Shown: piece by piece, positions 1-17,969 of the stretch
Layout of the letters: the number at the start of each line of letters is the position of its first letter
How positions within the stretch are numbered: the first letter of the stretch is position 1
From: a virus
Taxonomy: Duplodnaviria; Heunggongvirae; Uroviricota; Caudoviricetes
Virus record (IMG/VR): IMGVR_UViG_2585427781_000003
DNA length: 19,198 bases
Direction: 5' to 3' (one strand)
Notes under the pieces: generated by a model
What the model saw: only the letters and a program-made list of their open reading frames with translations
What the model was told of the DNA's origin: nothing
The model's database searches: none
Translations under genes and position numbers: made by a program

Positions 1-447
1 CGATTTTGAGAACGACAGCGACTTCCGTCCCAGCCGTGCCAGGTGCTGCCTCAGATTCAGGTTATGCCGCTCAATTCGCTGCGTATATCGCTTGCTGATT
101 ACGTGCAGCTTTCCCTTCAGGCGGGATTCATACAGCGGCCAGCCATCCGTCATCCATATCACCACGTCAAAGGGTGACAGCAGGCTCATAAGACGCCCCA
201 GCGTCGCCATAGTGCGTTCACCGAATACGTGCGCAACAACCGTCTTCCGGAGACTGTCATACGCGTAAAACAGCCAGCGCTGGCGCGATTTAGCCCCGAC
301 ATAGCCCCACTGTTCGTCCATTTCCGCGCAGACGATGACGTCACTGCCCGGCTGTATGCGCGAGGTTACCGACTGCGGCCTGAGTTTTTTAAGTGACGTA
401 AAATCGTGTTGAGGCCAACGCCCATAATGCGGGCAGTTGCCCGGCAT
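1..447 (-). CDS. insB: IS1 transposase InsB, 3' end truncated by the window edge
   Basis: ATG at 447-445 opens a frame reading [27 protein letters not shown]..., running to the window start where it reads ...[10 protein letters not shown]. Not in the ORF track because it runs off the window. Confidence 0.9.
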
Positions 448-641
448 CCAACGCCATTCATGGCCATATCAATGATTTTCTGGTGCGTACCGGGTTGAGA
501 AGCGGTGTAAGTGAACTGCAGTTGCCATGTTTTACGGCAGTGAGAGCAGAGATAGCGCTGATGTCCGGCGGTGCTTTTGCCGTTACGCACCACCCCGTCA
601 GTAGCTGAACAGGAGGGACAGCTGATAGAAACAGAAGCCAC
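366..641 (-). CDS. insA: IS1 InsA (DNA-binding N-terminal transposase component)
   Basis: 91-aa [43 protein letters not shown]... with a Cys-rich zinc-finger-like N-terminus; TAA stop directly after the A6C motif. Confidence 0.95.
384..392 (-). promoter_or_regulatory. IS1 programmed -1 frameshift motif (TTAAAAAAC) giving the InsAB' fusion transposase
   Basis: Minus-strand TTAAAAAAC at the end of insA, overlapping the insB frame. Confidence 0.85.
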
Positions 642-696
642 TGGAGCACCTCAAAAACACCATCATACACTAAATCAGTAAGTTGGCAGCATCACC

Positions 697-2174
697 GAGG
701 ATGAGTATTCTTCTGTCGCAATGCGGGCGGCCTCCTGCTGGTTCCCTTCATCCTGTAGCGCCTTAATCTGGTTATAAGTCGCAAGTGTCAGAAAATGGTA
801 CTGATCATTAAGTTTTGATATGGCACTGACAGGATCCTTTGCAATTTCATTGAAGTCATTAACCAGTTGTTCGGTTGATATTCCTGTTACTTCGCTCGTT
901 TTTACTATCGCTGTCGTCACTTGCTCCAGCGAACTGCTCGCTACCTTTCCCGAACGCACAAGCTGATTTAATACTGCCGCCGCAGCACCAGTTGTCGAAT
1001 CAGCCGCATTCCCGGCACGTTGAGCTATATCGCCCAATTGCCCGCTGGTTGTCCCCAACTGATTTCCGGTAAGAATAAGAGATTTATTAAATTCGTCCTG
1101 CTCCTGAGAGCCTTTATAGTAAGCCAGTCCTAAGACCCCAACGGCTGCTGCGGCCAGGGTAAAAGGATTAATTAATCCCAGCACATAAGAACCTACACCT
1201 TTGATCGCCGGGCCAATCCCACCGAACATATCTTTTAGCTGGCCGCCCTGCTGCATTAACACCATAAATGGCGACTGACCAGTGGACAACCCAACAACAA
1301 TATCCGTCATTTGTGCAGGCAACATGCGCATAGCAAAAGCCGTTTGTTTTGCCGACATTCCGGTTTTGCTTAATTGTGATTGAGTAACCTCAAGCTCACT
1401 CCGCATAGCACGAAGTTTTCCAGAAAGCTCCTCATACATTTCAGGAGAAAGCATCCCCTTAGCTTTTGCTTCATTGAGCTGTTTCTGTTGTTCTACCAGA
1501 CGATTAAAAGCAGTTCCGACAGGATCAAGTTGAGCAATCAGACGTTGCAAAGCAACAACCTGTTCATCATGCGCTTTTGCTGCTTCTCGCTCTGCCTGAG
1601 CCTCTCCGGTAAGCTCTCGCCGTGTTTCCTGTATTTTTCGGCTATAATTCTCAAACTGAGAACCATTTATTTTCCCGGATGCAAACGCAGCATTAAGTTC
1701 ATCATGCTGTTGTTCAAGATTTCTTAGCGCCGCAGCCAGAGGGTCGATCTTGTCCAGCATTCTTTGAAAGGCCTGAGCCTGCGCTTCCTGCTGGGCGGCA
1801 GCAAGTTTTCCGGCCTTCTCGGCTTCTCTCTGCGCTTGCGCAACCCCGCTCAATTCCTCTGTGGTTTCATTAAGTTTACGGACAAGAAATTCATATTCTT
1901 CTTTATCAATAAGCCCTTTATCGAAAAATTTCTTTAATTCAGAATAGCGTCGACCGACAGTATCAATTGCGGCACCAACTGGATCAATAGCTGCTTTTAA
2001 TTTTGCGAGCGCGTTCTTCTCATCTTCTGTTGCCTTAGTCACTTTCCCTGCGCTATTTGCAGCAGTTTCCCCAGCCTGCGTCATTTTGACTAATGAGGAG
2101 GTCAGATTGTCAGCATTATTTTTCGCTCCAGTGCTATCAATAATTATTGCGAGACGCGAGGTTTGCTCTGCCAT
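697..2174 (-). pseudogene. Tail tape measure protein, lambda H-like, 3' end truncated by the IS1 insertion
   Basis: ATG at 2174 preceded by an AGGAG RBS. Long coiled-coil N-terminus, then a motif [39 protein letters not shown]...LILTGNQ that closely resembles the lambda gpH motif as I recall it. The frame runs into IS1 at 696 and stops at 675; only about 490 native residues remain. Confidence 0.85.
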
Positions 2175-2190
2175 TTATTAAAACTCCTGA

Positions 2191-2220
2191 CAACAAAAAA
2201 CCCACCGCGAAGTGGGTTTC
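2191..2220 (-). terminator. Terminator-like hairpin plus T-run just upstream of the tape measure start
   Basis: Minus strand reads CCCAC TTCGCG GTGGG followed by TTTTTTGTTG. It lies in a 165-nt non-coding gap between the G-T stop (2340) and the tape measure RBS. Confidence 0.5.
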
Positions 2221-2339
2221 AGGCGACATAATAGTAGATATAGCGATTACGAGGCCACGCAATGCTTTTCTCCAGGAGCATCATCGATTTAATTAAAGAC
2301 ACCATCACATCTCTGTAACAGAGTGTACGTAATTAACAA

Positions 2340-3109
2340 CTACACACACTGCTCCTGAAAATACTGGTCATCCAGTGCAAAGATCACTGCTTCAAATTCA
2401 TCGCGCTCAATCAATACCGGATGAGTGGCTAAATATTCATTTATCTCTGTCAGAGATAAAGGCAAAGGCACCCCAGCCATTCCAGCATAACGTCGGGCAC
2501 GGGATATTACCGAATAGGCGTACAACAACTCCTTAAGCACCGGGTCTATTTCTGGTTCCGGTATCGGTGGCAACCTGAGTTTTTCTCGCTTCCATCTTGC
2601 CTTTTCCCCCCTTTCTCCCCCGAACTCCGATAACCACCGCTGGGCAGCTATGGCTTTTTTATCGTATCCTGCTTCTGCTGCTCTTTACCCTGGGCGATGC
2701 TGGCTGCTTCTGCAAGGATCTGCCAGTACAACTCTGGATTCTGCTTAAGCAGCGCGATCCCTCGTTCTGCCGTATATTCCAGTGCAACCTCAACACCATT
2801 AACCAGTTCACCAACCCCTTTCCAGTCTTTCAGCAGATAACGAGCGGCATTATCAATGAGTAAATCATCAACAGAATCCACCTCGGAAACCTTTGAAATA
2901 TCAAACTCCTTCGTTCCGACGTGCAAACTGGCATCCATTTTCTCAATGTGGCGACGGATTAATGCATTACGGGAGCGATACTGATCGTTATCGCTGCTTG
3001 CCACCAACAGTTTTAACCCGTCTACAGGTTTTAAGTCCTTCATTGGCGTAAACCAGCGTTCTCCACCAATGATAATTTTCTGATTAAGAATAAACATCCA
3101 TAACCTCAT
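2340..3109 (-). CDS. G-T tail assembly chaperone fusion product (via -1 frameshift at 2654-2660)
   Basis: The 2340-2573 ORF has no ATG (its first start-like codon is TTG), is in the -1 frame relative to G, and is contiguous and stop-free with the slip site. This is the architecture of lambda G/GT. Confidence 0.7.
2648..3109 (-). CDS. Tail assembly chaperone, lambda G-like
   Basis: 153-aa ORF directly downstream of the major tail gene. Ends ...DTIKKP-TAG, with the slippery heptamer in its last codons. Start may be ATG 3109 or ATG 3097. Confidence 0.8.
   Translation of the reverse strand: MRLWMFILNQKIIIGGERWFTPMKDLKPVDGLKLLVASSDNDQYRSRNALIRRHIEKMDASLHVGTKEFDISKVSEVDSVDDLLIDNAARYLLKDWKGVGELVNGVEVALEYTAERGIALLKQNPELYWQILAEAASIAQGKEQQKQDTIKKP
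2654..2660 (-). promoter_or_regulatory. Programmed -1 ribosomal frameshift site (A AAA AAG) for the G-T fusion
   Basis: Zero-frame codons ATA AAA AAG CCA TAG; the -1 frame is open from here (GCC ATA GCT GCC CAG CGG ...) with no stop until 2340. Confidence 0.75.
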
Positions 3110-3157
3110 TCAATGCGTCCCCCTGTAGGGCAGTACCACAGGAGGATTAACGGAAAA

Positions 3158-4120
3158 TCAACTAATCGCCTCAGCACTGGCTTTTGCGATCACGGCAGCC
3201 GGGGAATTTTTTTTTCTGGTTATCGTAGGTGCTTCATCTGCTGCGGTAATGCTCAATTGAACCTGGATAATGTCGCTATTACCCCCATCAGGCCATTCAC
3301 CTGACACCTGAACCTTCAGGAAACTGAAAGTGTATGCCCCCTCTCCATTCGAAAGCGTGAAGCTGAACGGAACTGTTTCTCCAGTCAGTGTTTTACTCCA
3401 GATTTCCCACGCGGCTTTAGACCATGAAAGCGTCACCGTACCGGACGGTGTAAAAGTAGTCGGAATATTTGCTCCTGCATAAGGCGAGCCAGTCCCGATA
3501 CAACGCTGTGTCTGGAGTTTGTTATCGAACTGAATATCAAAACTGTCGATACAAAAACCGTTACCTCCGGCAACACCATTCAGGCTTACTGCTGAAACCT
3601 CCTTAAACGAATAACGTAGCTTTCCTGCACTATCCACAGGTTCGCCTTTGATAAAATTCGTATCATCGGCCTTTGATTCCCAGTCCAGTCCGGCAAAGGT
3701 TACGGTCGCTGTAATATCGCCGTCGTTAGGGATCTGCATTTTCCATGAGCCAACCTGCGCTCCTCTGACGACAGAGGCAATTCCGACATCGGACGCATAG
3801 GTCGCCAGAGAAAATGTTATTCGCTCATTCCCCATTGTCAGAGAATCGCCTGACCATTCCGCGCCGAAACAGGATGCAAGAAAATCATCATGTTGACCCC
3901 AGCGAAATTTGGTACCAACATCACCGCCGACATCCACAGTGCCAGGCGTCGCCCCCTGAGCCATCCGGGAGCCACCAATCTCATTATTTTCGCCTTTATT
4001 CTGGGTGGGTTTTACTCCCCAGCTTGTGCGTTTTAATAAACTCCAGTCACCACTTGCTGGCGTAGTGCCTGCAACCGTCTCCCGGATAAATGCCGAGATA
4101 ACCTTTGCACCTGAACTCAC
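3158..4120 (-). CDS. Major tail (tube) protein
   Basis: 320-aa ORF, GTG start at 4120 preceded by AGGAGG (ATAGGAGGCTCCTGTG). Sits between the tail terminator-like gene and the G/GT chaperone. Confidence 0.75.
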   Translation of the reverse strand: MSSGAKVISAFIRETVAGTTPASGDWSLLKRTSWGVKPTQNKGENNEIGGSRMAQGATPGTVDVGGDVGTKFRWGQHDDFLASCFGAEWSGDSLTMGNERITFSLATYASDVGIASVVRGAQVGSWKMQIPNDGDITATVTFAGLDWESKADDTNFIKGEPVDSAGKLRYSFKEVSAVSLNGVAGGNGFCIDSFDIQFDNKLQTQRCIGTGSPYAGANIPTTFTPSGTVTLSWSKAAWEIWSKTLTGETVPFSFTLSNGEGAYTFSFLKVQVSGEWPDGGNSDIIQVQLSITAADEAPTITRKKNSPAAVIAKASAEAIS

Positions 4121-4146
4121 AGGAGCCTCCTATGTCATTAATTGCG

Positions 4147-4539
4147 CTAGAGCGCGCGATATGGAATTTGAAGATTAAGCTGGAACCAGCCATTCTTTTC
4201 GCCAACGGCTATTGAGGAAACAGCCTGGTAACTGAGACGATCGTCATCCTGAAACTCAAACAGTTCCCGCAATTTATCGGCTGTCTCAGTAATGAGTTTT
4301 GAACCAGAACCTGCGGGGACAAATAACTGAATAATGATTATCCCCGTGCGATAAACAATCGGCCCCGCGCCAATTTCATTAACTCCAGCCTGCCCGGGAA
4401 TATTACTTAACCGCGCCCAGATTAACTTACCGGAAGGATCGAACGTTGGCGCGTTCGGATACAATACGTCTTTTCCATCAATAATCGTCTGTGCCGTCAT
4501 TCTGGAAATAACCGTATTTCTGATTTCAGTAAACGTCAT
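4147..4539 (-). CDS. Tail terminator / tail-tube completion protein (putative)
   Basis: 130-aa ORF; start ATG overlaps the upstream stop as ATGA (translational coupling). Assignment is by position immediately before the major tail gene. Confidence 0.6.
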   Translation of the reverse strand: MTFTEIRNTVISRMTAQTIIDGKDVLYPNAPTFDPSGKLIWARLSNIPGQAGVNEIGAGPIVYRTGIIIIQLFVPAGSGSKLITETADKLRELFEFQDDDRLSYQAVSSIAVGEKNGWFQLNLQIPYRAL

Positions 4540-4916
4540 TTGTAAGCCTGTAAAACACCATGAAAAGCGTTGGCATACACGCCAGTTGGCGCTTGTTGTG
4601 AATGACCGTTTTCAAGAGCCTCTGCATAAGGAAGGTTATTCTGGATATAAATAACTCCGTAATTTGCAGCTTTCGAAATAACCCCGATCCCACGCTGAAC
4701 AGCAATCGTACCGTTCGGATCCACGTTATCAGATATACCAAAATCGGGATGCTGTAACGACACCAGGTTGTTATTTCTGAAACGTCCGGTATCAACCGGA
4801 GCAGCAATATCAATAGCAGTAAGAATCTGAATAGCGATGTAGCGAATCTTCAGCCCTACATCTTCCTCAATCATCCCGGCAAATATTGACGGTTCTATAT
4901 CCCATGCCTTTGCCAT
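4536..4916 (-). CDS. Head-tail joining protein, HK97 gp10-like
   Basis: 126-aa ORF with a VDTGRFRNN...NLPYAEALENG pattern reminiscent of the HK97 gp10 family; start abuts the upstream stop (TAAATG). Confidence 0.65.
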   Translation of the reverse strand: MAKAWDIEPSIFAGMIEEDVGLKIRYIAIQILTAIDIAAPVDTGRFRNNNLVSLQHPDFGISDNVDPNGTIAVQRGIGVISKAANYGVIYIQNNLPYAEALENGHSQQAPTGVYANAFHGVLQAYK

Positions 4917-5300
4917 TTACGCTCTCCTTAACTGGATAGAGTAAACTGATGCGGAAGGATCTACACTTGCTGTAATTACCTCGTATCGTTGTAACTGCCT
5001 TGATACAGGATCATAAATCTCAATAATATGGTCGACAGCTGGTTTATCCGTAACCTCGCATACCAGAGCGGTTAATTTAAGGTCACCATGCAAAATATTA
5101 ATCCCATCAATTCTGCCCAGCTTATAACGTGTCAACACGCCTCGCCCGGTATAGATTGCGGTGGATTCGCCGCCAGTTTCCGTCACAGGATCCCAGTGCC
5201 GGTGCGTAACGTAAGAACCAGAAAAATCACTCACGGCGTCCGCTAAATCCTCATCAAAAGCAGCGGCAACCTCTGACTGAATCTCTTCACGAAGCCCCAT
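4917..5300 (-). CDS. Head-tail joining / head closure protein (putative)
   Basis: 127-aa ORF in the neck gene block; start overlaps the upstream stop as TAATG. Confidence 0.55.
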   Translation of the reverse strand: MGLREEIQSEVAAAFDEDLADAVSDFSGSYVTHRHWDPVTETGGESTAIYTGRGVLTRYKLGRIDGINILHGDLKLTALVCEVTDKPAVDHIIEIYDPVSRQLQRYEVITASVDPSASVYSIQLRRA

Positions 5301-5302
5301 TA

Positions 5303-5694
5303 TCCCCCCCTCACAACCCTGACTTGTGAGCGACTAAGTCCGTACGGTTTCAGCAGTGCTATCGCAAGCTGTAAATCGGGTTCAAGCAATGCAGTGCTGT
5401 TTGCTGGCAACTCAGAAAATGATTTCGATACACTGACCCCGTCAGCCGACACGGCTTTACTGATAACAACGCCAGAATCATTTTTCTGCTGAAACAACTT
5501 ACCGAATGAGGCAATTCTGGCTGCATATGCTCCCGCAAGTTTTACCTCTTCCGGAATACGGGATGGGTTAATTTTCAGGTTGAGCCATTAAGCCAGGCAT
5601 TAGCCATTAAAACAGCTTTATTTTTAGCGTTCTCACTCGTCCAGGCGTTCCCAAACGCATTATCAACGTCATCACAGGTCACGTAAGTGATCAT
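5303..5694 (-). pseudogene. Head-tail adaptor-like gene split by a frameshift
   Basis: ATG at 5694 gives a 39-aa frame ending TGA at 5575. A second frame is open from 5587 to 5303 (the 65-aa track ORF is its TTG-initiated tail). The break coincides with a tandem 8-mer, minus-strand TGGCTTAA TGGCTCAA. Confidence 0.6.
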
Positions 5695-5697
5695 GTG

Positions 5698-5874
5698 TTA
5701 CTCCTGAGTTTTCCAGCCCATAGCCTTCCAGTTGTCAACTTCATCAGGATGAACATTAGCGATAGTTGGTGCGCCGGGAAACATCTGATAATCGGTCACC
5801 ATAACCACTAACTCAATTTGCGTTTTTTGTGCGGCTTCACGCTGTGCTCTTTGCTCTTTAGTTAATCCGGCCAT
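5698..5874 (-). CDS. Small hypothetical protein (58 aa) downstream of the major capsid gene
   Basis: ATG at 5874; translation MAGLTKEQRAQREAAQKTQIELVVMVTDYQMFPGAPTIANVHPDEVDNWKAMGWKTQE. Below the ORF track size cutoff; function unknown. Confidence 0.45.
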   Translation of the reverse strand: MAGLTKEQRAQREAAQKTQIELVVMVTDYQMFPGAPTIANVHPDEVDNWKAMGWKTQE

Positions 5875-5885
5875 ATGCCCCCCAT

Positions 5886-5906
5886 TAAAAATGGGGCCGA
5901 AGCCCC
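5886..5906 (-). terminator. Rho-independent terminator-like hairpin just after the major capsid gene
   Basis: Minus strand GGGGC TTCG GCCCC followed by ATTTTTAAT, starting about 10 nt after the capsid stop (5917). Confidence 0.6.
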
Positions 5907-5916
5907 GTTTGAATGT

Positions 5917-7056
5917 TTAACCAAGAATCAGACAACCATGTGCCGGCTTCACTGATGAAACACCCCATGCCAGTCCAACTTCATAGCGCACCTGGCGATA
6001 CTGACGATACAGTGCAATCTGGAACGTAATCCCTGAAATCGGGTCCGTAACATTCATTACATCATCAGCATTATCGCCACCTTCCGGCATTGCCGGAGTA
6101 CGGGATGCCAGCAGAAACGCGTTGCGATCAAACGCCATATTTGCCGTAAAGGCCCCAACAACTGTGATGGCAGTATCATCGGCCAGATCCTGACGCAGTC
6201 CGGGCGCTGCAAGAGTAATCAGATTGCTGGTCGCTGCTGCCACAACATACTGATTCGGATCACCAGCGAACGTAACAATCTGACCTGCAGAAATACTCCC
6301 CGAACCAGTATCAATGGAAATAAGAACATCGCCTTCTTTTTTCTCTCCATTCACGAGATAACCAGTTGCAGCAACCTTTGGCGCTCGTTTCACACCTGCC
6401 GAACTGTGAATATTGAATCCCTCCAGACACCCCAACACGCCCTCACGCAGTAGCTGTTCAGTGCCGGATTCATTCACTTTAAACAATACAGACTGTTTTC
6501 CGCGCAAATTAGCAATGGCAGTGGAGCCAAGCACCATCTGCAGATCGGTTGTCGGTGCGCCGTTATCCTCCAGAACCTGACGAGCCAGAGCAGCATCAGA
6601 AAGATCATCTTTAACACCAAACGGCGTTGTCCCTGCGGTTCCCACGGCGCGGGAAGCACCGAAATACAACGCACCAAGATCAGCCTCAACCTCGTTTGCA
6701 AGGGCGCGAAAAGCCTGCTTGAACTGATCAGCCAGAATGGTGTTGTAAGTCCCTGAAGGGCCAAGAGCCAGTTGTTCTTCACCATTCCATTTAACCGGTG
6801 CCATTTTGGATTTAGTAATTTTTACATCAACAGTGCCAATATTTTGATCACCGGTATTCGGAGCTGACGGCCCCGGTACGATATCTTCGGTTTTCGCCTC
6901 AGGCGCAACTGGCGCGGTTACCGTCTGATCTTTTGCTGCGGCGTCAGCTTTTGCGTTTTTTGCTACCGCAGGGATAAAACCTACCTGCTCACGGGATACA
7001 ACATCCAGGGCGGTATAAATAGTCGGGATCAACCCGGTCAGGGTATTTCCAGCCAT
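5917..7056 (-). CDS. Major capsid protein
   Basis: ATG at 7056 with an AAGGAA RBS (TTTTAAGGAATATTTAATTATGGCT), about 379 aa, following the scaffold gene. The track ORF extends further upstream but has no RBS there. Confidence 0.8.
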   Translation of the reverse strand: MAGNTLTGLIPTIYTALDVVSREQVGFIPAVAKNAKADAAAKDQTVTAPVAPEAKTEDIVPGPSAPNTGDQNIGTVDVKITKSKMAPVKWNGEEQLALGPSGTYNTILADQFKQAFRALANEVEADLGALYFGASRAVGTAGTTPFGVKDDLSDAALARQVLEDNGAPTTDLQMVLGSTAIANLRGKQSVLFKVNESGTEQLLREGVLGCLEGFNIHSSAGVKRAPKVAATGYLVNGEKKEGDVLISIDTGSGSISAGQIVTFAGDPNQYVVAAATSNLITLAAPGLRQDLADDTAITVVGAFTANMAFDRNAFLLASRTPAMPEGGDNADDVMNVTDPISGITFQIALYRQYRQVRYEVGLAWGVSSVKPAHGCLILG

Positions 7057-7154
7057 AATTAAATATTCCTTAAAAATTTGCGTAATTGTGAATAGATGGA
7101 GTAATGAGCTATCCAGCCCTGACACCAGCTCCCATCCGGAAGCTGACAAATGTG

Positions 7155-7919
7155 TTAATCAACGATTGTGATACCGTCTTTCAATGCGTTTTGCTTACCT
7201 GCAACATCCAGTGCATCAAAAGCAGAGCGTTTCATCGTTTTCTGACCAATATCATGCTGTGTCGGACGGGAGCCGCCGCCATTGTTGCCACTGGCTTTCA
7301 GGATGTAGTCTTTCTGAGGGTAATTTTCGACAAGGAACTCCAGCGCCTCATCAAACTGCGCCAGTTCGCCAGGCTTCGCGCGGGAATAAATTTTGTTGCC
7401 GGAAGCGTCATAAGCAACGATCCTCCCTTCTTCCACTTTGAATGCCTGCCCGAAGCGGGCTTGTAATAAATCTGCCGGGATCGCAATTTTATCGGCAATA
7501 TATTTTGAACCCGCAAAACTACCGCCAATCATAGAATCGTAAAGCTGCTTCTCCAGCATCTGAGAGCGTTGCTTTTCTTCATCTAATTGCTGCTGAAAAT
7601 TTTTCGTAATTTCTGCCTTAACCTGGTCAACCTGTCCCGCATCGAGCAGCTTTTTCTGGTCGATTTTTGACAGCATTTCCAGTGCCTCGATCGCCTTCTT
7701 CGGGTCTTCGATAGCGGCAAACTTAGCCAGTTTTTCCTCTGCAGCTTCTTTAGCCAGGCGATGATTTTTTGCCTCGCCATTAAGCTCTGTAATTTTTTTT
7801 GTCGCCAGCGGTGCATCGAAGCCAATTTCTTTACCATCGTCGTGCACATAAACTGGCAGGCCAGCAGTATCAATTTCTGCGTATTGTTTTCCGTTAATCT
7901 CGACCGTTTTCAGTTTCAT
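7155..7919 (-). CDS. Capsid scaffolding protein (putative)
   Basis: ATG at 7919 (MKLKTVEINGKQYAEID...); the track ORF begins at an upstream GTG. Coiled-coil-like, charged middle region; located between the Mu F-like and capsid genes. Confidence 0.65.
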   Translation of the reverse strand: MKLKTVEINGKQYAEIDTAGLPVYVHDDGKEIGFDAPLATKKITELNGEAKNHRLAKEAAEEKLAKFAAIEDPKKAIEALEMLSKIDQKKLLDAGQVDQVKAEITKNFQQQLDEEKQRSQMLEKQLYDSMIGGSFAGSKYIADKIAIPADLLQARFGQAFKVEEGRIVAYDASGNKIYSRAKPGELAQFDEALEFLVENYPQKDYILKASGNNGGGSRPTQHDIGQKTMKRSAFDALDVAGKQNALKDGITIVD

Positions 7920-8023
7920 ATTAGTACCTGGTTTAAGTCTTCCGACAGTTACGCTGCTCACCATCCGGATCGCAGCAATAAAAAAGGCCACCCGAAGGTA
8001 GCCTGTTGTAATAAATGATTTAT

Positions 8024-9139
8024 TTAAATCCCTGCTTTTCTGAATACCTGTGCATCACGCTCACGGAGCTGCTTCAGCGTCAGCCATTCGCCTTTATCGG
8101 TGTAAAATTCATCTGGCGACATACCACCATCCCGAATCAGCTTTGCTCGGGTTTCCCCCACAATCTGTTTTTGTCTGGTGTAAGGCTGACGCAAAAACCA
8201 TTCCCTGTAGGTTGTATCTCCGGCCACCACGCCATCCATGCTGGCCCGCTCAGCCGGGGAAATATCGCGAACATCAATACCCAGTTCCTTCGCTGATTTC
8301 AGAATGAACGTTTCCGTTGAGCGGCAGCAGAAATGAATTTTTCCCGGCCCCTGCAAATAAGGCACGCTGTGACCTACAGGTTTATTATTCAGCGTATATT
8401 TGAGGCGATCCCTGATTCGACATTGTGGCGTAGTACGATTATCAAGCGTTGATAACCATTGCTTACCCTTAATCAAATCATTATTCGCGCTGGCAAAACT
8501 CTCACGGGCAGTAGCAGCAAGATGTCCAACCGCTGTTTTTGCAATGCTGGCCGCATTAGCCCGGCTCATCTGCAATGCACCATCCTGAAATCCCTTACTG
8601 ACATGTCCCCGAATTTTTCTTGCGATCTGCTCATTGGTATCCCCCAGCAAAAAACCCTGACGCACTGTATTTGTTATGCGTCTGAGCCGATCCGCCTCAA
8701 GATCTGAGGCCCACTCACTGAGCAGTCGTCCCTGGAATGGTCGCGCCATTGCAGCGGCATAAAGTGCATCAGGAGAGATACCAACCAGAGGGTGAACATC
8801 AGCAACAAAATCAGGTAGCATAGAATCAAACAGACTTAACTGATAACCAGCCTCATAAATTGCCAGCTCGTTCAGCTCTCCGGAGAGACTGGTAAACATG
8901 CTGTTAATAGCAGTGCGGTTAACCTTTCTGACGCTCGCCAGAAGTGACTCCAGGCGCTTAACGGTAAAATTACCTGGATCGAGGCTGTCCAGTGCTATCA
9001 GCAGGCGAGCAGTAAGTTCCGCATCGCTGTCATTCAGTATTTTCACCATTCTGGCAGCCACGCCAGTGCTATAGCGGGATATCCAGACTGCATGAGCAAT
9101 TGATTCATCACGCAGCCGTTCATTCACGGTTTGCATCAT
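8024..9139 (-). CDS. Head morphogenesis protein, SPP1 gp7 / Mu F-like
   Basis: 371-aa ORF containing WLSTLDNRTTPQCR, the hallmark TTPxC motif of this family; immediately downstream of the portal gene. Confidence 0.85.
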   Translation of the reverse strand: MMQTVNERLRDESIAHAVWISRYSTGVAARMVKILNDSDAELTARLLIALDSLDPGNFTVKRLESLLASVRKVNRTAINSMFTSLSGELNELAIYEAGYQLSLFDSMLPDFVADVHPLVGISPDALYAAAMARPFQGRLLSEWASDLEADRLRRITNTVRQGFLLGDTNEQIARKIRGHVSKGFQDGALQMSRANAASIAKTAVGHLAATARESFASANNDLIKGKQWLSTLDNRTTPQCRIRDRLKYTLNNKPVGHSVPYLQGPGKIHFCCRSTETFILKSAKELGIDVRDISPAERASMDGVVAGDTTYREWFLRQPYTRQKQIVGETRAKLIRDGGMSPDEFYTDKGEWLTLKQLRERDAQVFRKAGI

Positions 9140-10526
9140 TGATTTCCATCAGCATTACACTCTGATTTTTTAATTCATCGATCACTTCCTCTGGACGGGA
9201 ATCCTGATCGATAAATTTCAACGCCTGCAACACCCGAACCGCATCAATCTGACGTATATCACCGCCCTGACGCAATGACTGAACAGCCAGCGCGGAGGAT
9301 GAGTCAAACACCTGGGCAGATACATCCAGTTCAGTGCGCACATCCACATTGCCACCGCAACTCTCTCCGATCCATTCCGCCATTATCTGGAGAATATTAT
9401 CGAGGGCATCTTCGAGGGAGTTCGCCATTGTATAAAGCGGCGAGTTTTCCTGCATTCGCTCTTCATTAGTCTGATCAACAGATTTGGTGGATGTATTTTC
9501 AGCACGCAGAAGTTTAGCGCCGGCATGACGCATCTGATTTTCCAGCTTCTCAAGTGATGTTTCGCCAGATTCTATCGCTGCGCCACTATGTTCAACATAT
9601 TCGAGGCCATTTTTTGTTCTGTCCTCAAAAATCGTAGCGGTGGATGCACCAACCGTCAGTTCTTCATTCCTGTCCAGCCCGTAGGCCACCAGCAATGGAA
9701 CGCGGGTAACATAAAGAATATTGTCCTGCTCGCTCTGGCTTTGCCAGTGCTTGATATTCAGCAAGCCAAGATTAAGCAATGGCGGTGTACCACGCATAAA
9801 TCCTGTTTTCTTCGTGTACAGTGTTACCAGAGGAATATCATCACGGCTGGTATTCCATGACTCATGAAGCGTCCAGACAGATTCGCCATTAGTGCCTTCG
9901 CTACGTCGATAAATTTCAACTCGACGGGGCATAATATGGCGGATCTGCTCCACCTTCTTCTGCCCGAAATCATCACCATCAATAATGATGACCTCTTTTA
10001 TACGCAAATCAGTGAGAACAACTTTCCCTTTTTCAACTTTCGATTTCCATCCAATAACCTGGCGTGGATTCAGCATCGTAACGTACGGACGACCACCGGT
10101 CGCGTTTTCATCGGCTTTTGTACGAATCTCTTTCATATCCGTTCGTGGATAGTCCACCAGCGCATGTGCCACACCATACTGAAATGCGAGGCTGAAAAAT
10201 TGCTGCGCCCACACATCCAGTCGGCTCCCCTCCATGTCGATATTTTCTGCATATTCCCTGATTTTTGCCGGCGTTTCCTCACTCAATACTGTCGGCTCTG
10301 CAAATATGCGCCCAATATTTTGCTTGATGCTTTCTTCATACACAGGAAGTAGCGTAGCCACAGACAGGCGTTTTTTATAAGCGTCTTCATCTTCGTTAGG
10401 CCATTTTGGGAGATAATTTTCCCCCTGCCTGCGCATTTCAAGCGTACCGCCCATCAGTGCGTCGTTAATATCCCACGCCTCCAGCATATCGTTATAGTCG
10501 AGGTTGGGTGTTGATATATCAGCCAT
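9120..10526 (-). CDS. Portal protein (putative)
   Basis: 468-aa ORF immediately downstream of the terminase large subunit (stop TAA then TT then ATG). Assignment is by position and size; I did not recognise a specific portal family. Confidence 0.7.
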   Translation of the reverse strand: MADISTPNLDYNDMLEAWDINDALMGGTLEMRRQGENYLPKWPNEDEDAYKKRLSVATLLPVYEESIKQNIGRIFAEPTVLSEETPAKIREYAENIDMEGSRLDVWAQQFFSLAFQYGVAHALVDYPRTDMKEIRTKADENATGGRPYVTMLNPRQVIGWKSKVEKGKVVLTDLRIKEVIIIDGDDFGQKKVEQIRHIMPRRVEIYRRSEGTNGESVWTLHESWNTSRDDIPLVTLYTKKTGFMRGTPPLLNLGLLNIKHWQSQSEQDNILYVTRVPLLVAYGLDRNEELTVGASTATIFEDRTKNGLEYVEHSGAAIESGETSLEKLENQMRHAGAKLLRAENTSTKSVDQTNEERMQENSPLYTMANSLEDALDNILQIMAEWIGESCGGNVDVRTELDVSAQVFDSSSALAVQSLRQGGDIRQIDAVRVLQALKFIDQDSRPEEVIDELKNQSVMLMEINDANRE

Positions 10527-10528
10527 AA

Positions 10529-11830
10529 TTAAATCCGAAGTGATGTGACTCTTCCGGTCGGTTTGACAATAGGGAATTGCTTAACGATGAAATAACCTCC
10601 GGCATCATTCGGGTGATCATTGCCAGATTTTTTATCAGGCTCCCCCTTCTCATCCCAGACCTGTTGCTCCAGAGATTCGGCATATAACGGGCAACGCTTC
10701 ACATTAACTTTATAGCGACGCTCACCATTGGCATTGCAGAACATTGCATTCATTGAGTTAACGCGATCTTTTACTGGCGGGGTCGAGCTGTTCACCACAA
10801 CGTTAAAACCAGCCTGCTTAAGCTGGGCTATATCCGTCGTACTTGCGTTACTTGATTTTCTGGAATCCCCGGAAGCATCTGGATAAATATAAATTTCCCT
10901 CACTTTCCGGTAATCATTCCCATCATACAGCCAGAAGCGTTCTTTAATGATGCGGATCATATCCGGCGTATCGTAGGCATTGATGATTTCAGTTACCGCA
11001 CATGGAAGCCCCAAACGCAGCACATGGACGATTCCCGCCATCTTTCCAACGTTAAAATCCATCCCAATATAAATCGGCTCCCCTGGCTGCTCCACTTCTT
11101 CGCAATTATTCAGTTTCCGGTCAAACTGATGGTAAACAGTACCACTTGTCAGGTTAGTAAACTGTCCTCGAAGATAGGCTTTAATCAGCTCTGGAGGGTA
11201 TGATTCAAGAAGCGAAGGAATGTAATCTGCTGGCAGGTTCTTTTCATTATCGAAAGTAGATGCCTGCACCAGACCATACAGTGAGGCCAGCTCTGTTTTT
11301 TCACGCACGGCTTTAACAAACTGCTCGTAGACAAATTTGAATCCTTCCGGCGTGGTTGTAACGTCAATACCGTTGCGAAGTCCATCAATCTTATAACGCA
11401 TACGTGCAATTATCTTGCGCCACGCCGTTCTGGCTTTTTCCTTCGGCAAAATGTCCAGTTCATCCACCAACGCATTACCAATTTTGAAATCGACGATCGT
11501 TTGTGGCTTCTCCATCGATCTGCAGATAGTGGTTCCCCGATACTGGCGTCCGTAATAAAAGTGAACCTCTTTATTTCCCTCATTAATTTTTACGTTCAAT
11601 CCCCAGTCAGCAGCAACTTCTTCCACTGTAGGGTAAAAAATATCGCGAATTTGGGGATACGTTGGCGCAAAATATCCCTGATTTATACCTGGATGCTCCC
11701 AAATCCCCTTGCATATGCCGCCACACCCAACCCATGTTTTGCCCGAGCCAAAACCAGCAATATAGGCTTTAAATTTATGGGGCATTGAAAGAAATCGCGC
11801 CTGAGGCACATTAAGCGTCGGAGAGATCAT
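10529..11830 (-). CDS. Terminase large subunit
   Basis: Walker A-like AGFGSGKT near the N-terminus and a nuclease-type C-terminal half. Start chosen at ATG 11830 (AAGGAG 8 nt upstream); the track ORF begins at GTG 11839. Confidence 0.88.
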   Translation of the reverse strand: MISPTLNVPQARFLSMPHKFKAYIAGFGSGKTWVGCGGICKGIWEHPGINQGYFAPTYPQIRDIFYPTVEEVAADWGLNVKINEGNKEVHFYYGRQYRGTTICRSMEKPQTIVDFKIGNALVDELDILPKEKARTAWRKIIARMRYKIDGLRNGIDVTTTPEGFKFVYEQFVKAVREKTELASLYGLVQASTFDNEKNLPADYIPSLLESYPPELIKAYLRGQFTNLTSGTVYHQFDRKLNNCEEVEQPGEPIYIGMDFNVGKMAGIVHVLRLGLPCAVTEIINAYDTPDMIRIIKERFWLYDGNDYRKVREIYIYPDASGDSRKSSNASTTDIAQLKQAGFNVVVNSSTPPVKDRVNSMNAMFCNANGERRYKVNVKRCPLYAESLEQQVWDEKGEPDKKSGNDHPNDAGGYFIVKQFPIVKPTGRVTSLRI

Positions 11831-12905
11831 CTTCATCACTCCTTACTCTGGCATCAACCACATTAATATTGATCGCCACAGGCTGGGGATGTTCATTATC
11901 TTCCACCGTTTCGATCTCTTTGCGCAGCTTCTGGTTTTCCATTCTGCGCCGTTCAATTTCCAGTTCCTGTAGCCGTTTATCTGCACATAAAGCCCCGCCA
12001 GCAGAAAACAAACGCAACAATTCACGCCGGGCGGCAGCCTTATCCTCCAGCAGGATCTCAACGCCGAATTTTCCGAATTTTGCCCCTGCATATAATTGCC
12101 GCGCATCCCCATCAAGCAGAGTGGTATCAGCCATATAAAGCTGTCCCGTTCCCTCACCGCAGCACTTCGGGCAGTCCGGATTGGGTATGGCGTTATCAAC
12201 AAAGCCGAGGCCTCCATATTCCGGTTCGGGTTTGCCATCTCTGGAAGCCTGCGCCGCTGCCTTGTCGAATTCTGCTATATCGCGCCACTGGTAGAGATGA
12301 TTCTCGCCCCAGCAATAACGGCAGTTAACACGGCGAAATTGTGCAAGCTGATTGGGGTCGGCCAGGACAATAGCCATCAACTGACTCACTAGTAAATCCA
12401 GGTCTGCGGTATAGCGTTTCTGGTACTGATTGCGGAAGTAGCTGATAGCGCGAAAAACCCTGGCATTTCTAAGCATACGACTGGCGTTGCTGTTAGCTGT
12501 CGCACCTTGCCCCTCATAACCGGCTAGTCGGTACGCCTCTGTCGGCTTTTTACCCTGAGCAACAAGCATCGCAAACTTAGCCTGCTGGTCAGAAATGCCG
12601 AATTCATCGGGACAGAACGAAAATTCCTCCGCGTCGCCCTCATTCAGGCCCGCATCGAATACTGGCTTTTTTTCCTGAGATTTTTCGTTCCGCTTTTGTG
12701 CAGTCTGCGCAGATTTTTTCTGCGCACTTTTTTGCGCAGTTTTGCACATTTCTGTCTGCGCATTTTTCGGAGTTTTTTTGATGTAACGACGGGCTGTTGC
12801 GTAATTCAGTCCCCTTGCTTCACACCATGCCACCGGAGATATACCGGAGCGGGTGTATTCAGCAATATACTCCTGCTGCAACGCCCCCCAGTCCGGTCTG
12901 CTCAT
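11811..12905 (-). CDS. Terminase small subunit (unusually long, 364 aa)
   Basis: N-terminal HTH-like segment, an AMLVAQGKKPTEAYRLAGY motif typical of small terminase subunits, and a 20-nt overlap with the terminase large subunit start. Confidence 0.8.
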   Translation of the reverse strand: MSRPDWGALQQEYIAEYTRSGISPVAWCEARGLNYATARRYIKKTPKNAQTEMCKTAQKSAQKKSAQTAQKRNEKSQEKKPVFDAGLNEGDAEEFSFCPDEFGISDQQAKFAMLVAQGKKPTEAYRLAGYEGQGATANSNASRMLRNARVFRAISYFRNQYQKRYTADLDLLVSQLMAIVLADPNQLAQFRRVNCRYCWGENHLYQWRDIAEFDKAAAQASRDGKPEPEYGGLGFVDNAIPNPDCPKCCGEGTGQLYMADTTLLDGDARQLYAGAKFGKFGVEILLEDKAAARRELLRLFSAGGALCADKRLQELEIERRRMENQKLRKEIETVEDNEHPQPVAININVVDARVRSDEDDLSDA

Positions 12906-12908
12906 CAG

Positions 12909-13160
12909 TTAGTCCTGATTTTTATCCACCCTGAGTAGTTCGCGCAGAGCAAAGGCATCCCCTTTTCTGGCAAGCTTAAACAATGCCGCTCGTAACTCGG
13001 CTTCACCTTTCGCTCTGCCCTTACGGATGGCCGCATAAAAATCTGTCATTGCTTCCCGATTTTCTTTCAGTCGGTTCAGATCAACATCCAGAACGTCAGC
13101 GATTTGTTGTGCAGTCATCCGGCACGCTGCCAGAGACTCGACTTTCGAATACGGAATCAT
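12909..13160 (-). CDS. Small HTH-type DNA-binding protein (function unknown)
   Basis: 83-aa ORF; ATG at 13160 preceded by GGGGGTGA; HTH-like segment MTAQQIADVLDVD; sits immediately upstream of the terminase small subunit. Confidence 0.6.
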   Translation of the reverse strand: MIPYSKVESLAACRMTAQQIADVLDVDLNRLKENREAMTDFYAAIRKGRAKGEAELRAALFKLARKGDAFALRELLRVDKNQD

Positions 13161-14028
13161 TTGTCACCCCCATTGATATGCAGGGTGTCTTCTTCCTGTA
13201 TTTTTCGTGAAGGATTTTTACTGCAGCGTTGTTCCAGGTGACCTGATGGTGAATGCGTTTATGGCTGGCACCCATCAGTGAGATTTTTACGCACGACGGC
13301 GCATACATGACGGAGTAAAAACTTTTAACGTAGGTTCCGGAATCCAGATACAGCTCGGTCATTCCGCCGCTGTTTTTCTGCGTCTGTTTCTGCCCTAACT
13401 GGACAGCACCGATCGTCATAAACAATTCACCACAGCGACCGAGATTCGTGTACGTATTCACATCCTCGTTAATGCGCCCCATGAATGAGAACGGTCGATC
13501 AACCGAACAGATAAAGCTGTTCATTGCCTTGCGTTTCACCCACGAAGCATGGCCGCCATTGTCACCAAGAAAATCCCCGCCCTGCGACATAGCGATGGAA
13601 AGAGCAGGTATTGATTCGTAGTACGCCAGCATTTCAGAAAGGATCGCATCCAGTTTCCTTATCGGAAAATAGGCCTGGTCATAGTTGCGATCCACCCGAA
13701 ACTGGAACTCGTGATAATCATCATCGAGCTGAATGAAGTATTTACACCCGACCAGTTTTGCCAGGTCGAAACAGGCATTACGGGCGTAAAAAATTGAGCG
13801 GCGGTCACAGAAATTATCGGCTTCGTCAAAACGACTGGCGATATCGGCTTTGGAAAACACCAGCACCTGTTCACCAAATTCAGCCATGTACTGATTTCGT
13901 GTCTTATCTTCATCATCAACAACGATAAAAATTTTCCCGGTATAGCCAGCACGACGCAACGTCCGGTAAGTCAGAACTTTGTCCGGTCGCCCGTGAGTCA
14001 GAATAAAGGCGCAAAAATCATCACGCAT
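13096..14028 (-). CDS. GT-A-fold-like nucleotide-sugar transferase candidate (hypothetical)
   Basis: ATG at 14028 preceded by GAGGAGGAGGAAT and overlapping the ParB-like stop (ATGCGTGA). Pattern FILTHGRP...IFIVVDDED...YFIQLDDDY is beta-alpha-beta followed by a DxD-type acidic motif. No transmembrane segments. Function is inferred from these motifs only. Confidence 0.55.
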   Translation of the reverse strand: MRDDFCAFILTHGRPDKVLTYRTLRRAGYTGKIFIVVDDEDKTRNQYMAEFGEQVLVFSKADIASRFDEADNFCDRRSIFYARNACFDLAKLVGCKYFIQLDDDYHEFQFRVDRNYDQAYFPIRKLDAILSEMLAYYESIPALSIAMSQGGDFLGDNGGHASWVKRKAMNSFICSVDRPFSFMGRINEDVNTYTNLGRCGELFMTIGAVQLGQKQTQKNSGGMTELYLDSGTYVKSFYSVMYAPSCVKISLMGASHKRIHHQVTWNNAAVKILHEKYRKKTPCISMGVTNDSVFESRVSGSVPDDCTTNR

Positions 14029-14812
14029 ATTCCTCCTCCTCACCACCATGCATGATCTCCACCATGCGCTGCGTCATCCGGACAAATCCATTTTCAATAG
14101 CCTGCTGATAATCAATGATCACCAGCGCCGACTCCTCGAAAAAACACTGAATTTCAGAGGGGGCGTGAGCGTAATAGTCCGCAATTCTGCTGAAATTAAA
14201 CACCGTGTGACGTTCTGCCGCACACAGGAGGAATTTCTCAATATCAGGCTCAAGGGACGCCGAACGTATCCGGCTGATCAGCTCCTGAGTTTTCGTATCG
14301 TCGTACAGTTCACTGATATCCGGTTTACCGCCCGACGGCTCATAAACAGGCGTATCAATTTTCGTCGTATACGGCTCCTCCTCATTTCCTGTACCGGGCA
14401 AAACATCCGTCAACAGTTCATCAATTTCTGTCGGGATGAAGCCTGTCAGGGAGACATCAAAATCAGCATTGATTAGGTCCGACAGCTCCATCCGCAACAG
14501 ATCTTCATCCCAGCCAGCATTCATCGGCAGGCGATTATCTGCCAGGCGGTACGCCTTTTTCTGCTCATCCGTCAGGCCAGACAGAACAATGACCGGAACA
14601 GAATCCATTTTGAGCATTTCAGCCGCCATAACACGACCGTGACCCGCAATAATTTCGCCCTTTTCGTCAATCAGCACCGGATTAGTCCAGCCGAATTGCT
14701 TAATACTTTCTACCAGTTGTGCCACCTGCTCAGGGCTGTGCGTCCTGGCGTTGTGCGCATACGGTGACAATTCTTGTAATGGGCGATAGACTATCTTTAA
14801 TTTCTCGCTCAT
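14021..14812 (-). CDS. ParB-like nuclease domain protein
   Basis: 263 aa; the N-terminal ~100 aa (YRPLQELSPYAHNARTHSPEQVAQLVESIKQFGWTNPVLIDEKGEIIAGHGR) matches the ParB/sulfiredoxin-type N-domain pattern; acidic C-terminus. ATG at 14812 with an AAGG RBS. Confidence 0.78.
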   Translation of the reverse strand: MSEKLKIVYRPLQELSPYAHNARTHSPEQVAQLVESIKQFGWTNPVLIDEKGEIIAGHGRVMAAEMLKMDSVPVIVLSGLTDEQKKAYRLADNRLPMNAGWDEDLLRMELSDLINADFDVSLTGFIPTEIDELLTDVLPGTGNEEEPYTTKIDTPVYEPSGGKPDISELYDDTKTQELISRIRSASLEPDIEKFLLCAAERHTVFNFSRIADYYAHAPSEIQCFFEESALVIIDYQQAIENGFVRMTQRMVEIMHGGEEEEYA

Positions 14813-14825
14813 ACAGCCTTGCTTT

Positions 14826-14863
14826 ATGAATAAAACGCACCCCAGCAGCCAGTGCTACTGGGG
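14826..14863 (-). terminator. Possible terminator downstream of trkG
   Basis: Minus strand CCCCAG (12-nt loop) CTGGGG then TGCGTTTTATTCAT, between the trkG stop (14950) and the ParB-like start. The large loop and spacer make it weak. Confidence 0.35.
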
Positions 14864-14949
14864 ACGGAGGGGTTGCTGGTAAAGTTAGGTATTGGATCAA
14901 TGAGTGAGTCAACATAATATTAAACTCACAATTATAAATCAGCCATATA

Positions 14950-16407
14950 TTAGGAGCGCCAAAAAAAACCTGAAAACAATATAATAACAGGATAAATTTC
15001 AAGGCGACCAAGAATCATAGCTATGCACATTAAACATTTTGCAATGTCATTAAGCACTCCGAATGACGATGCAGTAGCCCCAAAACCTAATCCCATATTA
15101 TTAATACATGCAGCCACTGTTGCAAATGATGTAAGAAAATCATATCCCATACCATTTAACACCAGTATAAAAAACACCGTGAAGAGAGTATAAAGAAAAA
15201 AGAAACTCCATACAGACCTCATTACACGATCTGTAACTATCTTCCCTCCTACATTTACACTCAACAACGCTCTGGGATGAGAAAGCTGATTTATCTCGTG
15301 TTTGCTTTGTTTGAAAAGTATAAGAAATCGAAGTGACTTAATTCCACCACAAGTTGAACCTATACATCCCCCAAAGAAACTTGACAACAGCAAAAACACT
15401 ATCGTGTGCGTGGGCCAACTTGCATAATCCTGCGTAGCTAAACCATTATCAGTGAGCATGGAGCTGGCAAGAAAAAACGAATGAATAAAACTTCCATGCA
15501 AGTCATACATACCTATATGCCAGACCTGGAAAGAGGTAACAATGATCACCCCTAAGGCTATTAACAGAAAGAAACGAAGTTCAATATCTCTGATTAAAGG
15601 TTTTATCGTTTTCCTGCTAATAACAATATACCAAAGAGTGAAGTTGAAAGCCGATAGCAGGGAAAAAGAACCAGCCACCAGCTCAACCAAATAGTTATTA
15701 AAATATCCGATACTCTCGCTATGAGTTGAGAAACCACCAAGCGAAACTGTGGAAATCCCGTGACAAATAGCATCAAACAAAGGCATTCCTGCAAGTCTAT
15801 AACAGACAATACAAGCAATACCTAATAAAGAATAAGTTATCCACAGTGTCCGTGACGTATCGGCCAGGCGGGGAGTGAGTTTGTCATCCTTAAATGGCCC
15901 CGGCATTTCTGACTGATAAAGCTTTGCACCACCAATACCCAATAATGGCAATACAGCAACCGCCAGAACAATAACTCCTAAACCACCTATAAAATTTAAC
16001 TGTGACCGATAGTACAAATATGCCCGAGGTAATGAACTAACATCATCAATTACAGTTGCTCCTGTTGTTGTTATTCCAGAAACCCCTTCAAACAGAGCAT
16101 CAATGAACGTTAAATTAAGTTCTGAGTCAATCCATAAAGGGAATGCACTAATAACAGAAAACAAAATCCAAAACATTACAATTATAATAAACCCATCACG
16201 GGTACGTAATTGAATGCCAGATTTCTTAGTTGTATACCACGCTCCGCCACCAATGCAAAAAAATATAACGAAAGTTATAAAGAAAACGAACAGGCTTTTT
16301 TCTTTATAAAACAATGCTACAACCATTGGTGGCAACATTGAAAGACTATAGAGCCAAACCAGGAACCCACACATATGAGTAACAACTCTTACATGAGATG
16401 TATTCAT
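14950..16407 (-). CDS. trkG: TrkH/TrkG-family potassium uptake membrane protein
   Basis: 485 aa from ATG 16407 (MNTSHVRVVTHMCGFLVWLYSL...); polytopic membrane protein with repeated GxG-type selectivity-filter-like loops. The sequence matches what I recall of TrkG from the E. coli K-12 Rac prophage. Visibly AT-rich relative to its neighbours. Confidence 0.93.
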   Translation of the reverse strand: MNTSHVRVVTHMCGFLVWLYSLSMLPPMVVALFYKEKSLFVFFITFVIFFCIGGGAWYTTKKSGIQLRTRDGFIIIVMFWILFSVISAFPLWIDSELNLTFIDALFEGVSGITTTGATVIDDVSSLPRAYLYYRSQLNFIGGLGVIVLAVAVLPLLGIGGAKLYQSEMPGPFKDDKLTPRLADTSRTLWITYSLLGIACIVCYRLAGMPLFDAICHGISTVSLGGFSTHSESIGYFNNYLVELVAGSFSLLSAFNFTLWYIVISRKTIKPLIRDIELRFFLLIALGVIIVTSFQVWHIGMYDLHGSFIHSFFLASSMLTDNGLATQDYASWPTHTIVFLLLSSFFGGCIGSTCGGIKSLRFLILFKQSKHEINQLSHPRALLSVNVGGKIVTDRVMRSVWSFFFLYTLFTVFFILVLNGMGYDFLTSFATVAACINNMGLGFGATASSFGVLNDIAKCLMCIAMILGRLEIYPVIILFSGFFWRS

Positions 16408-16544
16408 ATCTAAATATTCTTTCAATTATAACCACCTTGCTGCAATATTATGATTATACTGTATAAAATTTAACTCCTCTTAGATCTTACTTCACTGTTC
16501 CTTATGAAACAATCATCAAAATGAATCATATTGTAGTTAAGATT

Positions 16545-17009
16545 TTACTTTAAACACTGCTCGGTTATGTATTGCTGAGCACCTTCAAGTTGGGCCTGCA
16601 TCATTACCAGTCGTTCCCGGAGGGTGAAATAATCCCGTTCAGCGGTGTCTGCCAGTCGGGGGGAGGCTGCATTATCCACGCCGGAGGCGGTGGTGGCTTC
16701 ACGCACTGACTGACAGACTGCTTTGATGTGCAACCGACGACGACCAGCGGCAACATCATCACGCAGAACATCATTTTCAGCTTTCGCATCAGCTAACTCC
16801 TTCGTGTATTTTGCATCGAGCGCAGCAACATCACGCTGACGCATCTGCATGTCAGTAATTGCCGCGTTCGCCAGCTTCAGTTCTCTGGCATTTTTGTCGC
16901 GCTGTTCTTTGTAGGCGATGGCGTTATCACGGTAATGATTAACACCCCATGACAGGCAGACGACGATGCAGATAACCAGAGCGGAGATAATCGCGGTTAC
17001 TCTGTTCAT
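16545..17009 (-). CDS. Rz i-spanin
   Basis: ATG at 17009 overlaps the endolysin stop (ATGA). N-terminal TM segment ([16 protein letters not shown]) followed by a coiled-coil periplasmic domain. Confidence 0.9.
16604..16789 (-). CDS. Rz1 o-spanin lipoprotein, embedded in Rz in the +1 frame
   Basis: 61 aa, [20 protein letters not shown] lipobox, proline-rich ([16 protein letters not shown]), lying entirely inside Rz. Confidence 0.9.
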
Positions 17010-17503
17010 TGCTGACCCCACAAACAGATTTCACGCTCAATCTCACGACGAGTCATGAGACCTTTCCATTGCTTACCGCCAGCATATGTCCAGCGACGTA
17101 GCTGATCACATGCGCCTTTGATATCGCCCTGGTTTATTTTGCGAAGAAGCGTCGATGTTCTGAAATTGCCAGCACCCACGTTGTAAACGAATGAGTAAAG
17201 AGCGCCGCGCGTTGTTTCCGGTATATCGACTTTGATGTACGGGTTAATTTGTCTGGCGACCGTGGCAAGGTCTTTATTCAGGAGGGCTTTGCATTCTGCT
17301 TTGGTATACGTTTTACCGAGCATGATGTCTTTTCCTGTATGCCCGTGACATACAGTCCATACACCAACAATATCTTTGTATGGTATGTAGCTGACACCTT
17401 CCAGACCATCGTTACCACTTGGGCCAGTGATTAACACTGATGCTATAGCAATTGCTCCGCCACCAATAGCAGCAGCAACGACTTTTCGTAATGATGGAGG
17501 CAT
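17006..17503 (-). CDS. SAR endolysin (T4 lysozyme-type, phage 21 R-like)
   Basis: 165 aa with a Gly/Ala-rich N-terminal signal-arrest-release segment ([20 protein letters not shown]) and catalytic E...D...T spacing ([16 protein letters not shown]). RBS GAGGTGA; start overlaps the holin stop (TAATG). Confidence 0.93.
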
Positions 17504-17718
17504 TATTCACCTCTCGCAGCCTTGCGCTTATCTTCTTTAATCTTGAAATAAAGGTTTGTCAGGTACGTCAGCAGGCCAAATACCAGACTACCCAGCACAC
17601 CGATTGCAGCCCACTGTGACGGAGTTACTCTATCGAGCAACTGTAAAAACCAGTAGCCAGCACTGCCTGCGGAGGTGCCGTAGGCAATGCCTGTTGAAAT
17701 TTTGTCCATGGATTTCAT
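17503..17718 (-). CDS. Pinholin, phage 21 S-like
   Basis: 71 aa from ATG 17718 with a dual-start MKSM motif and GGAGGTGAGGCT RBS; two TM segments. The track ORF begins at an upstream ATG that lacks an RBS. Confidence 0.92.
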
Positions 17719-17820
17719 AGCCTCACCTCCGCACGGAACGGATGGCATAGTTATTATGTGTAGGCTTTCAGACACATCAATCAGAGCCTTAATTGATATA
17801 TATGCTGGAGACGATGCAAT

Positions 17821-17844
17821 ATAAAAAGCTCGCCGTAGCGAGCT
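17821..17844 (-). terminator. Rho-independent terminator-like hairpin between lipoprotein gene 1 and the lysis cassette
   Basis: Minus strand AGCTCGC TACG GCGAGCT followed by TTTTTAT. Confidence 0.55.
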
Positions 17845-17969
17845 AATAAAATGTATTTCTCTGATATTATGTTTATTTGTATTAGCTCAGACTTGACATC
17901 ACAGGTTTCGTATATAGAACATCATCAAATCTGTCAGTTTGCTATGAATGAGATATAGTAATTGAAGAG

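Follow-up and report, generated by a model that had tools for sequence, protein, structure and literature searches.

IS1 truncation of the tape measure gene in a Rac-family prophage of Escherichia coli

The tape measure protein (TMP) gene at the beginning of the DNA analysed here, hereafter called the window (19,198 nucleotides, contig JORS01000054.1 of assembly GCA_000713255.1), is truncated by an IS1 element. The explanation that accounts best for the sequence, and that is very probably correct as a whole, is a simple IS1 insertion which split the TMP gene of a Rac-family prophage when this element was already defective. Both the kind of event and the prophage family are known, public records already carry the annotation, and the case belongs to ordinary prophage decay. 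The value of describing it lies mostly in annotation, one decay step of a widespread Rac-type prophage being documented. The features of the window that are referred to below are:

1-392, minus strand: insB' frame of IS1, the InsAB' fusion frame being open to the window start (214 of 232 amino acids)
366-641, minus strand: insA of IS1, 91 amino acids, GTG start; Pfam Zn_ribbon_InsA (1.3e-21) and HTH_Tnp_IS1 (4.7e-31)
674-696, minus strand: left terminal inverted repeat of IS1, the last 23 bases of the element, reverse complement of GGTGATGCTGCCAACTTACTGAT
675-2174, minus strand: truncated TMP gene, 499 amino acids, consisting of 493 native codons followed by VMLPTY and a stop from IS1
697-705, minus strand: left copy of the 9-bp target duplication, CTCATCCTC in gene sense, TMP nucleotides 1470-1478
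2340-3109, minus strand: tail assembly chaperone pair upstream of the TMP gene; phrog_313 (4e-46) and phrog_1189
5300-5694, minus strand: head-tail adaptor Ad1 pseudogene with a 1-bp deletion at 5583, 39 amino acids instead of 131
18938-19198, unstranded: end of an IS2 element, TGGATTTGCCCCTATATTTCC... (TGGATTTGCCCC...), cut by the contig end

The element at the start of the window is an IS1 family insertion sequence. Positions 1-696 (minus strand) are IS1A-like and contain 696 of the 768 bp of such an element, the 72 bp of the right end being missing because the contig begins inside IS1. The sequence aligns end to end with the complete 768-bp IS1A of E. coli EEC_W5 (L012), with 2 mismatches in 696 positions (99.7 % identity), and the matching complete genomes annotate the element as 'IS1-like element IS1A family transposase'. 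The programmed -1 frameshift motif A AAA AAC (A6C) is located at 382-392, and the Pfam domain DDE_Tnp_IS1 is listed for the gene call corresponding to the 214 amino acids of InsAB'. Elements of the IS1 family have imperfect terminal inverted repeats of approximately 23 bp. The left repeat, GGTGATGCTGCCAACTTACTGAT, encodes the last six codons and the stop of the chimeric open reading frame, and the right repeat, GGTAATGACTCCAACTTATTGAT, is found at the junction in two other contigs, L025 and L022. Compared with simple insertions of IS1A or IS1R in E. coli genes, the copy in the window has the same canonical left repeat, insA, A6C motif and InsAB' frame, and a sister assembly, GCA_013404415.1, has a 9-bp target duplication which begins and ends in C/G. 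Nothing of substance differs from such insertions in the 696 of 768 bp which the window holds.

Native prophage DNA starts exactly at position 697, as determined by alignment to the uninterrupted gene of E. coli L73; upstream of this position there are just four chance matches to the L73 sequence (691-694). Residues 1-493 of the truncated protein are 100 % identical to the 1077 amino acid TMP of L73 (WP_000840618), and residues 494-499 (VMLPTY), together with the TGA codon at 677-675, come from the IS1 repeat. The protein encoded in the window matches Pfam TMP_2 (3.2e-82) and phrog_24, tail length tape measure protein (6.5e-160). TMP_2 is thus the domain that has been retained, whereas TMP_4 and Tape_meas_lam_C, which are present in the intact 1077 amino acid relative, are absent. 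At the junction the TMP frame is open, the native gene reading on as ...SSS-MIQRTNQ... for 584 further codons. Inside IS1 this frame runs into a series of stops, the first of them being codons 500, 504 and 508, so that the full-length protein cannot be made.

The sequence-only reading had proposed that IS1 truncates the TMP gene, and this was borne out, the identity of IS1, the junction and the chimeric open reading frame all being seen. The positions it gave for the end of the IS1 repeat (696) and the stop of the reading frame (675) were right to the base. Its estimate that about 490 native amino acids of the TMP were left agrees with the 493 of 1077 (46 %) found here, and the frame was, as it had stated, still open at the junction, where the L73 gene runs on. 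A TMP frame restored beyond IS1, which would have spoken against that reading, was not observed; the frame meets the series of stops beginning at codon 500.

Hundreds of complete E. coli genomes contain prophage DNA with 99.9-100 % identity to the native part of the window, 697-18937, and in 681 genomes at least 80 % of this part is covered. The window carries trkG and ydaY, and the N-terminus of its TMP is identical to YnaA of strain K-12 in 311 of 312 positions. In relatives, one flank of the prophage consists of pinR-tfaR ... uspF-ompN (2017.03.02CC, L016) and the other contains the Rac repressor gene (racR), racC, recE/recT, ralR, the integrase gene and ttcA (ON470595.1). Judged by these sequence comparisons the prophage is a long form of Rac, the ttcA and uspF/ompN integration context being taken from the relatives. 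Rac has been described as ancient and as widespread in E. coli, Shigella and Salmonella (PMC4632033). The cryptic Rac of K-12 (trkG-ynaK-ydaY-ynaA-lomR::IS5-stfR-tfaR-pinR) is of the same family as the window prophage and is affected in the same gene. It has lost the whole head and tail-shaft region, and 312 native TMP codons are left through deletion, whereas the window prophage has kept the genes from terminase to tail tube and has its TMP gene split at codon 493 by IS1.

A cargo gene, trkG (14950-16425, minus strand), which encodes a K+ transporter, separates the lysis cassette (16545-17775) from the ParB-like and terminase genes, an arrangement which is a hallmark of Rac-type prophages. 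The 'phage' records ON4705xx, which match the window, are partial prophage predictions with the host genes ttcA and dbpA included; they do not show that virions are made by intact relatives, and should not be regarded as viable phage isolates. One of these, ON470595.1 ('Escherichia phage vB_EcoS-683R6'), is a partial prophage region in which the TMP gene is annotated in two pieces.

The gene directly upstream of the TMP gene, ydaY (2648-3109), encodes a G-like chaperone and has a -1 frame extension which is open to 2340. Frame analysis identified a slippery sequence, A AAA AAG, at 2660-2654, just before the ydaY stop, and the region looks like a conserved G/GT programmed frameshift. The presence of a G/GT-type chaperone pair in this position confirms the gene order expected for a tape measure gene. 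The order is the same as for gpH with gpG/gpGT of phage lambda, i.e. tail tube, G/GT-type chaperone, TMP, M, L, K, I and J, the last five genes being read in relatives and in contig L025, and, like the lambda gpH system, the intact relative has Pfam TMP_2 and a lambda-type C-terminal domain. The TMP of the intact relative has 1077 amino acids and lambda gpH has 853, the likeness between them being drawn here from sequence.

In tape measure proteins of the lambda type, protein length sets the length of the tail. In lambda, the tape measure reportedly must be a single polypeptide; the C-terminal part of gpH is said to join the tail-tip initiator, and the tube to polymerise around gpH. By analogy, an N-terminal fragment corresponding to 46 % of the TMP should not support tail assembly, and from lambda gpH biology, a sound basis for the argument, we infer that the prophage is unable to build its own tail. 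IS1 is also classically polar on downstream genes.

A second lesion is present in the head-tail adaptor gene Ad1, in which the deletion at 5583 changes GTTGAAGCC to GTTGAGCC; the intact version of Ad1 matches phrog_493 at 1.5e-48. The same frameshift is found in the IS1-free complete genomes of 2017.03.02CC and Z1323CEC0004 (L016 and L033), which are nearly identical to the window and have the gene annotated as 'frameshifted'. Since the frameshift is common to these IS1-free relatives, it is older than the IS1 insertion in this lineage. IS1 was probably not the first disabling lesion, and most probably hit a prophage in which virion formation was already blocked. The Ad1 frameshift is absent from some other contigs with IS1 at the same site (L007, L027-L030).

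The suggestion that the head genes look intact was consequently wrong for one gene, Ad1, which is cut to 39 amino acids by the 1-bp deletion; the terminase, portal, capsid and lysis open reading frames in the window are open. The related proposal, that the IS1 insertion has made the prophage defective, stands in so far as the truncation stops production of full-length TMP, and is incomplete in that the Ad1 frameshift predates IS1.

It is unlikely that the prophage spreads despite IS1, either because another lambdoid prophage supplies tail proteins, including the tape measure, in trans, or because recombination repairs the gene. The open terminase, portal, capsid and lysis genes are consistent with such spread, as are observations from E. 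coli O157 Sakai, in which prophages with morphogenesis defects are still packaged and some defective prophages are still transferred, apparently via complementation by co-resident lambdoid prophages (PMC2669165). In the window, however, the head-tail adaptor gene is frameshifted too, and the regulatory side of the prophage is broken by IS2 at 18938. The lambdoid prophages of O157 Sakai (Asadulghani et al. 2009, PMC2669165) likewise gather IS insertions and frameshifts in morphogenesis genes, the prominent IS family being a different one there, in contrast to IS1 here. One of them, Sp10, is Rac-like, yet has kept all of its morphogenesis genes (PMC2669165).

At the other end of the window, identity to IS-free relatives ends at 18937, and the IS2 element at 18938 breaks into the prophage at a point upstream of the tolA-like and lysis genes. 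The window ends inside IS1 and IS2 because short-read assemblies break at repeated elements, and a contig ending in IS1 and IS2 shows only that these elements are repeated in the genome. A Shigella-like, IS-rich genome, as had been suggested from the two elements, was not supported. The source is E. coli, the NCBI names for the chimeric protein being E. coli 4-203-08_S3_C2 and _C3, and queries which include the IS1 end have matches in approximately 93 % of the 5,426 complete E. coli genomes, with a median of approximately 10 places per genome, counts to which the TMP part of these queries contributes as well. A draft contig that ends in IS elements should not be read as a Shigella-like sign.

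In the native gene an ATG codon (M494) directly follows the junction, and a remnant open reading frame of 584 amino acids was therefore predicted for the far side of IS1. The exact sequence of this remnant is present in public data (P0136, exact-sequence look-up). A variant of 592 amino acids, with a TTG start inside IS1, was not in the collection searched by the same exact-sequence look-up. A homology search with the 584 amino acid remnant found no cluster representative of this size, since clustering at 90 % places fragments together with larger sequences. Two contigs, L025 and L022, begin with ...ATCAATAAGTTGGAGTCATTACC/CTCATCCTC/AATGATCCAG..., that is, with the right end of IS1, the 9 bp found at 697-705 of the window and the continuation of the gene. 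In both contigs the TMP remnant of 584 codons is followed by homologues of lambda tail genes from M to J, L025 running through M, L, K and I into the start of J.

Contig L025 is part of the sister assembly GCA_013404415.1, as is L010, which encodes the identical 499 amino acid chimera and differs from the window by one SNP over 3.8 kb. When either the window or L010 is combined with L025, CTCATCCTC flanks IS1 on both sides. Looking for the remainder of IS1 and for a 3' TMP remnant with a 9-bp duplication, the check which the sequence-only reading had proposed, thus gave a positive result in the sister assembly. As judged from these contigs, IS1 in the sister assembly arrived by simple transposition and duplicated 9 bp of its target; since the junction is shared by descent, we infer that the far side is the same in the genome of the window. 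The exact junction in one piece was absent from 5,426 complete RefSeq E. coli genomes, both orientations being searched, so that no closed genome could show both sides together.

The possibility that IS1 in the window's genome instead marks the endpoint of a deletion or rearrangement, the 3' half of the TMP gene and perhaps further tail genes being gone, is quite improbable. The far side is known from the sister assembly, beyond the window's own contig, and an example of such an arrangement is found in E. coli CUVM53, in which IS1 at TMP nucleotide 1800 is joined, with no target duplication, to a fragment of a tail fibre assembly gene; this junction reads as an IS1-associated deletion or rearrangement. 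The sister assembly, however, with its identical left junction and a single SNP in 3.8 kb, has a right junction with a perfect 9-bp duplication and downstream tail genes, and a secondary deletion in the strain of the window would require an extra event. In CUVM53 (locus L001, 7761-10496), the Rac-type prophage fragment adjoins a GGDEF gene, ybhB and the bio operon.

Mis-joins do occur at contig ends in repeats, but an assembly chimera of an unrelated IS1 copy with the prophage contig is scarcely credible, since independent NCBI assemblies and raw-read (Logan) assemblies yield the exact 499 amino acid chimera on at least 24 contigs, all of which break inside IS1, and the complementary junction with the target duplication exists in L025 and L022. 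The same chimera, and hence the same junction, in independent assemblies means that the junction is not an assembly accident. The IS1 junction at TMP nucleotide 1478 is a clonal marker for an E. coli lineage.

According to the preferred explanation, a simple insertion, a 768-bp element of the IS1A type would have transposed into codon 493/494 (nucleotides 1470-1478) of the 1077-codon TMP gene that a lambdoid prophage of the Rac family carries in an E. coli lineage, and the 9-bp target CTCATCCTC would have been duplicated. Such an insertion predicts the junctions ...CTCATCCTC/GGTGATG... and ...CATTACC/CTCATCCTC/AATGATCC. The TMP gene would be split into a 5' open reading frame (675-2174), which runs for six codons into the left repeat of IS1 before the stop, and a 3' open reading frame of 584 codons, expected beyond the contig edge and followed by the tail genes M, L, K, I and J. 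The prophage would already have carried the frameshifted head-tail adaptor gene when IS1 landed.

A second chimera of 499 amino acids (P0134), ending in VMTPTY, was found on 17 contigs from other samples. In these contigs IS1 again begins after the same native base, but with its right repeat and right-end sequence, as seen at the contig ends of L027-L032; the element is thus in the opposite orientation. Inversion of IS1 by recombination with another IS1 was considered as the origin of this orientation and rejected: at a given junction such recombination leaves the terminal repeat as it was, and the opposite-orientation allele is therefore an independent insertion. Between them, the two orientations lie on at least four prophage backgrounds, which differ from the window at 0-2, 4, 36-38 and 52 positions per 9 kb.

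Whether TMP nucleotides 1470-1478 (CTCATCCTC) of Rac-family prophages form a genuine IS1 hot spot, struck by two or more independent insertions in natural E. coli, is evenly balanced. If they do, IS1 may be drawn there by some local property of the DNA; selection to silence the tail module of a widespread prophage is a less likely cause. The IHF consensus, with up to one mismatch allowed, was not found within 80 bp of the target, and the AT content at the target, approximately 50 %, is not above the gene mean of 55 %. A search of the literature on IS1 in tape measure genes or in Rac gave background papers only. The repeated use of the same 9-bp target in both orientations is the sole mildly interesting point of this insertion.

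IS1 is also found at other sites in the TMP gene. In complete genomes it is present at nucleotides 1800, 1920 and 2038, and L015 has it at another site. Duplications of 8 or 9 bp accompany the copies at 1920 and 2038. The IS1 elements located elsewhere in the TMP gene in L012, L013 and L014 are simple insertions with duplications of 8 or 9 bp, and both halves of the gene are present.
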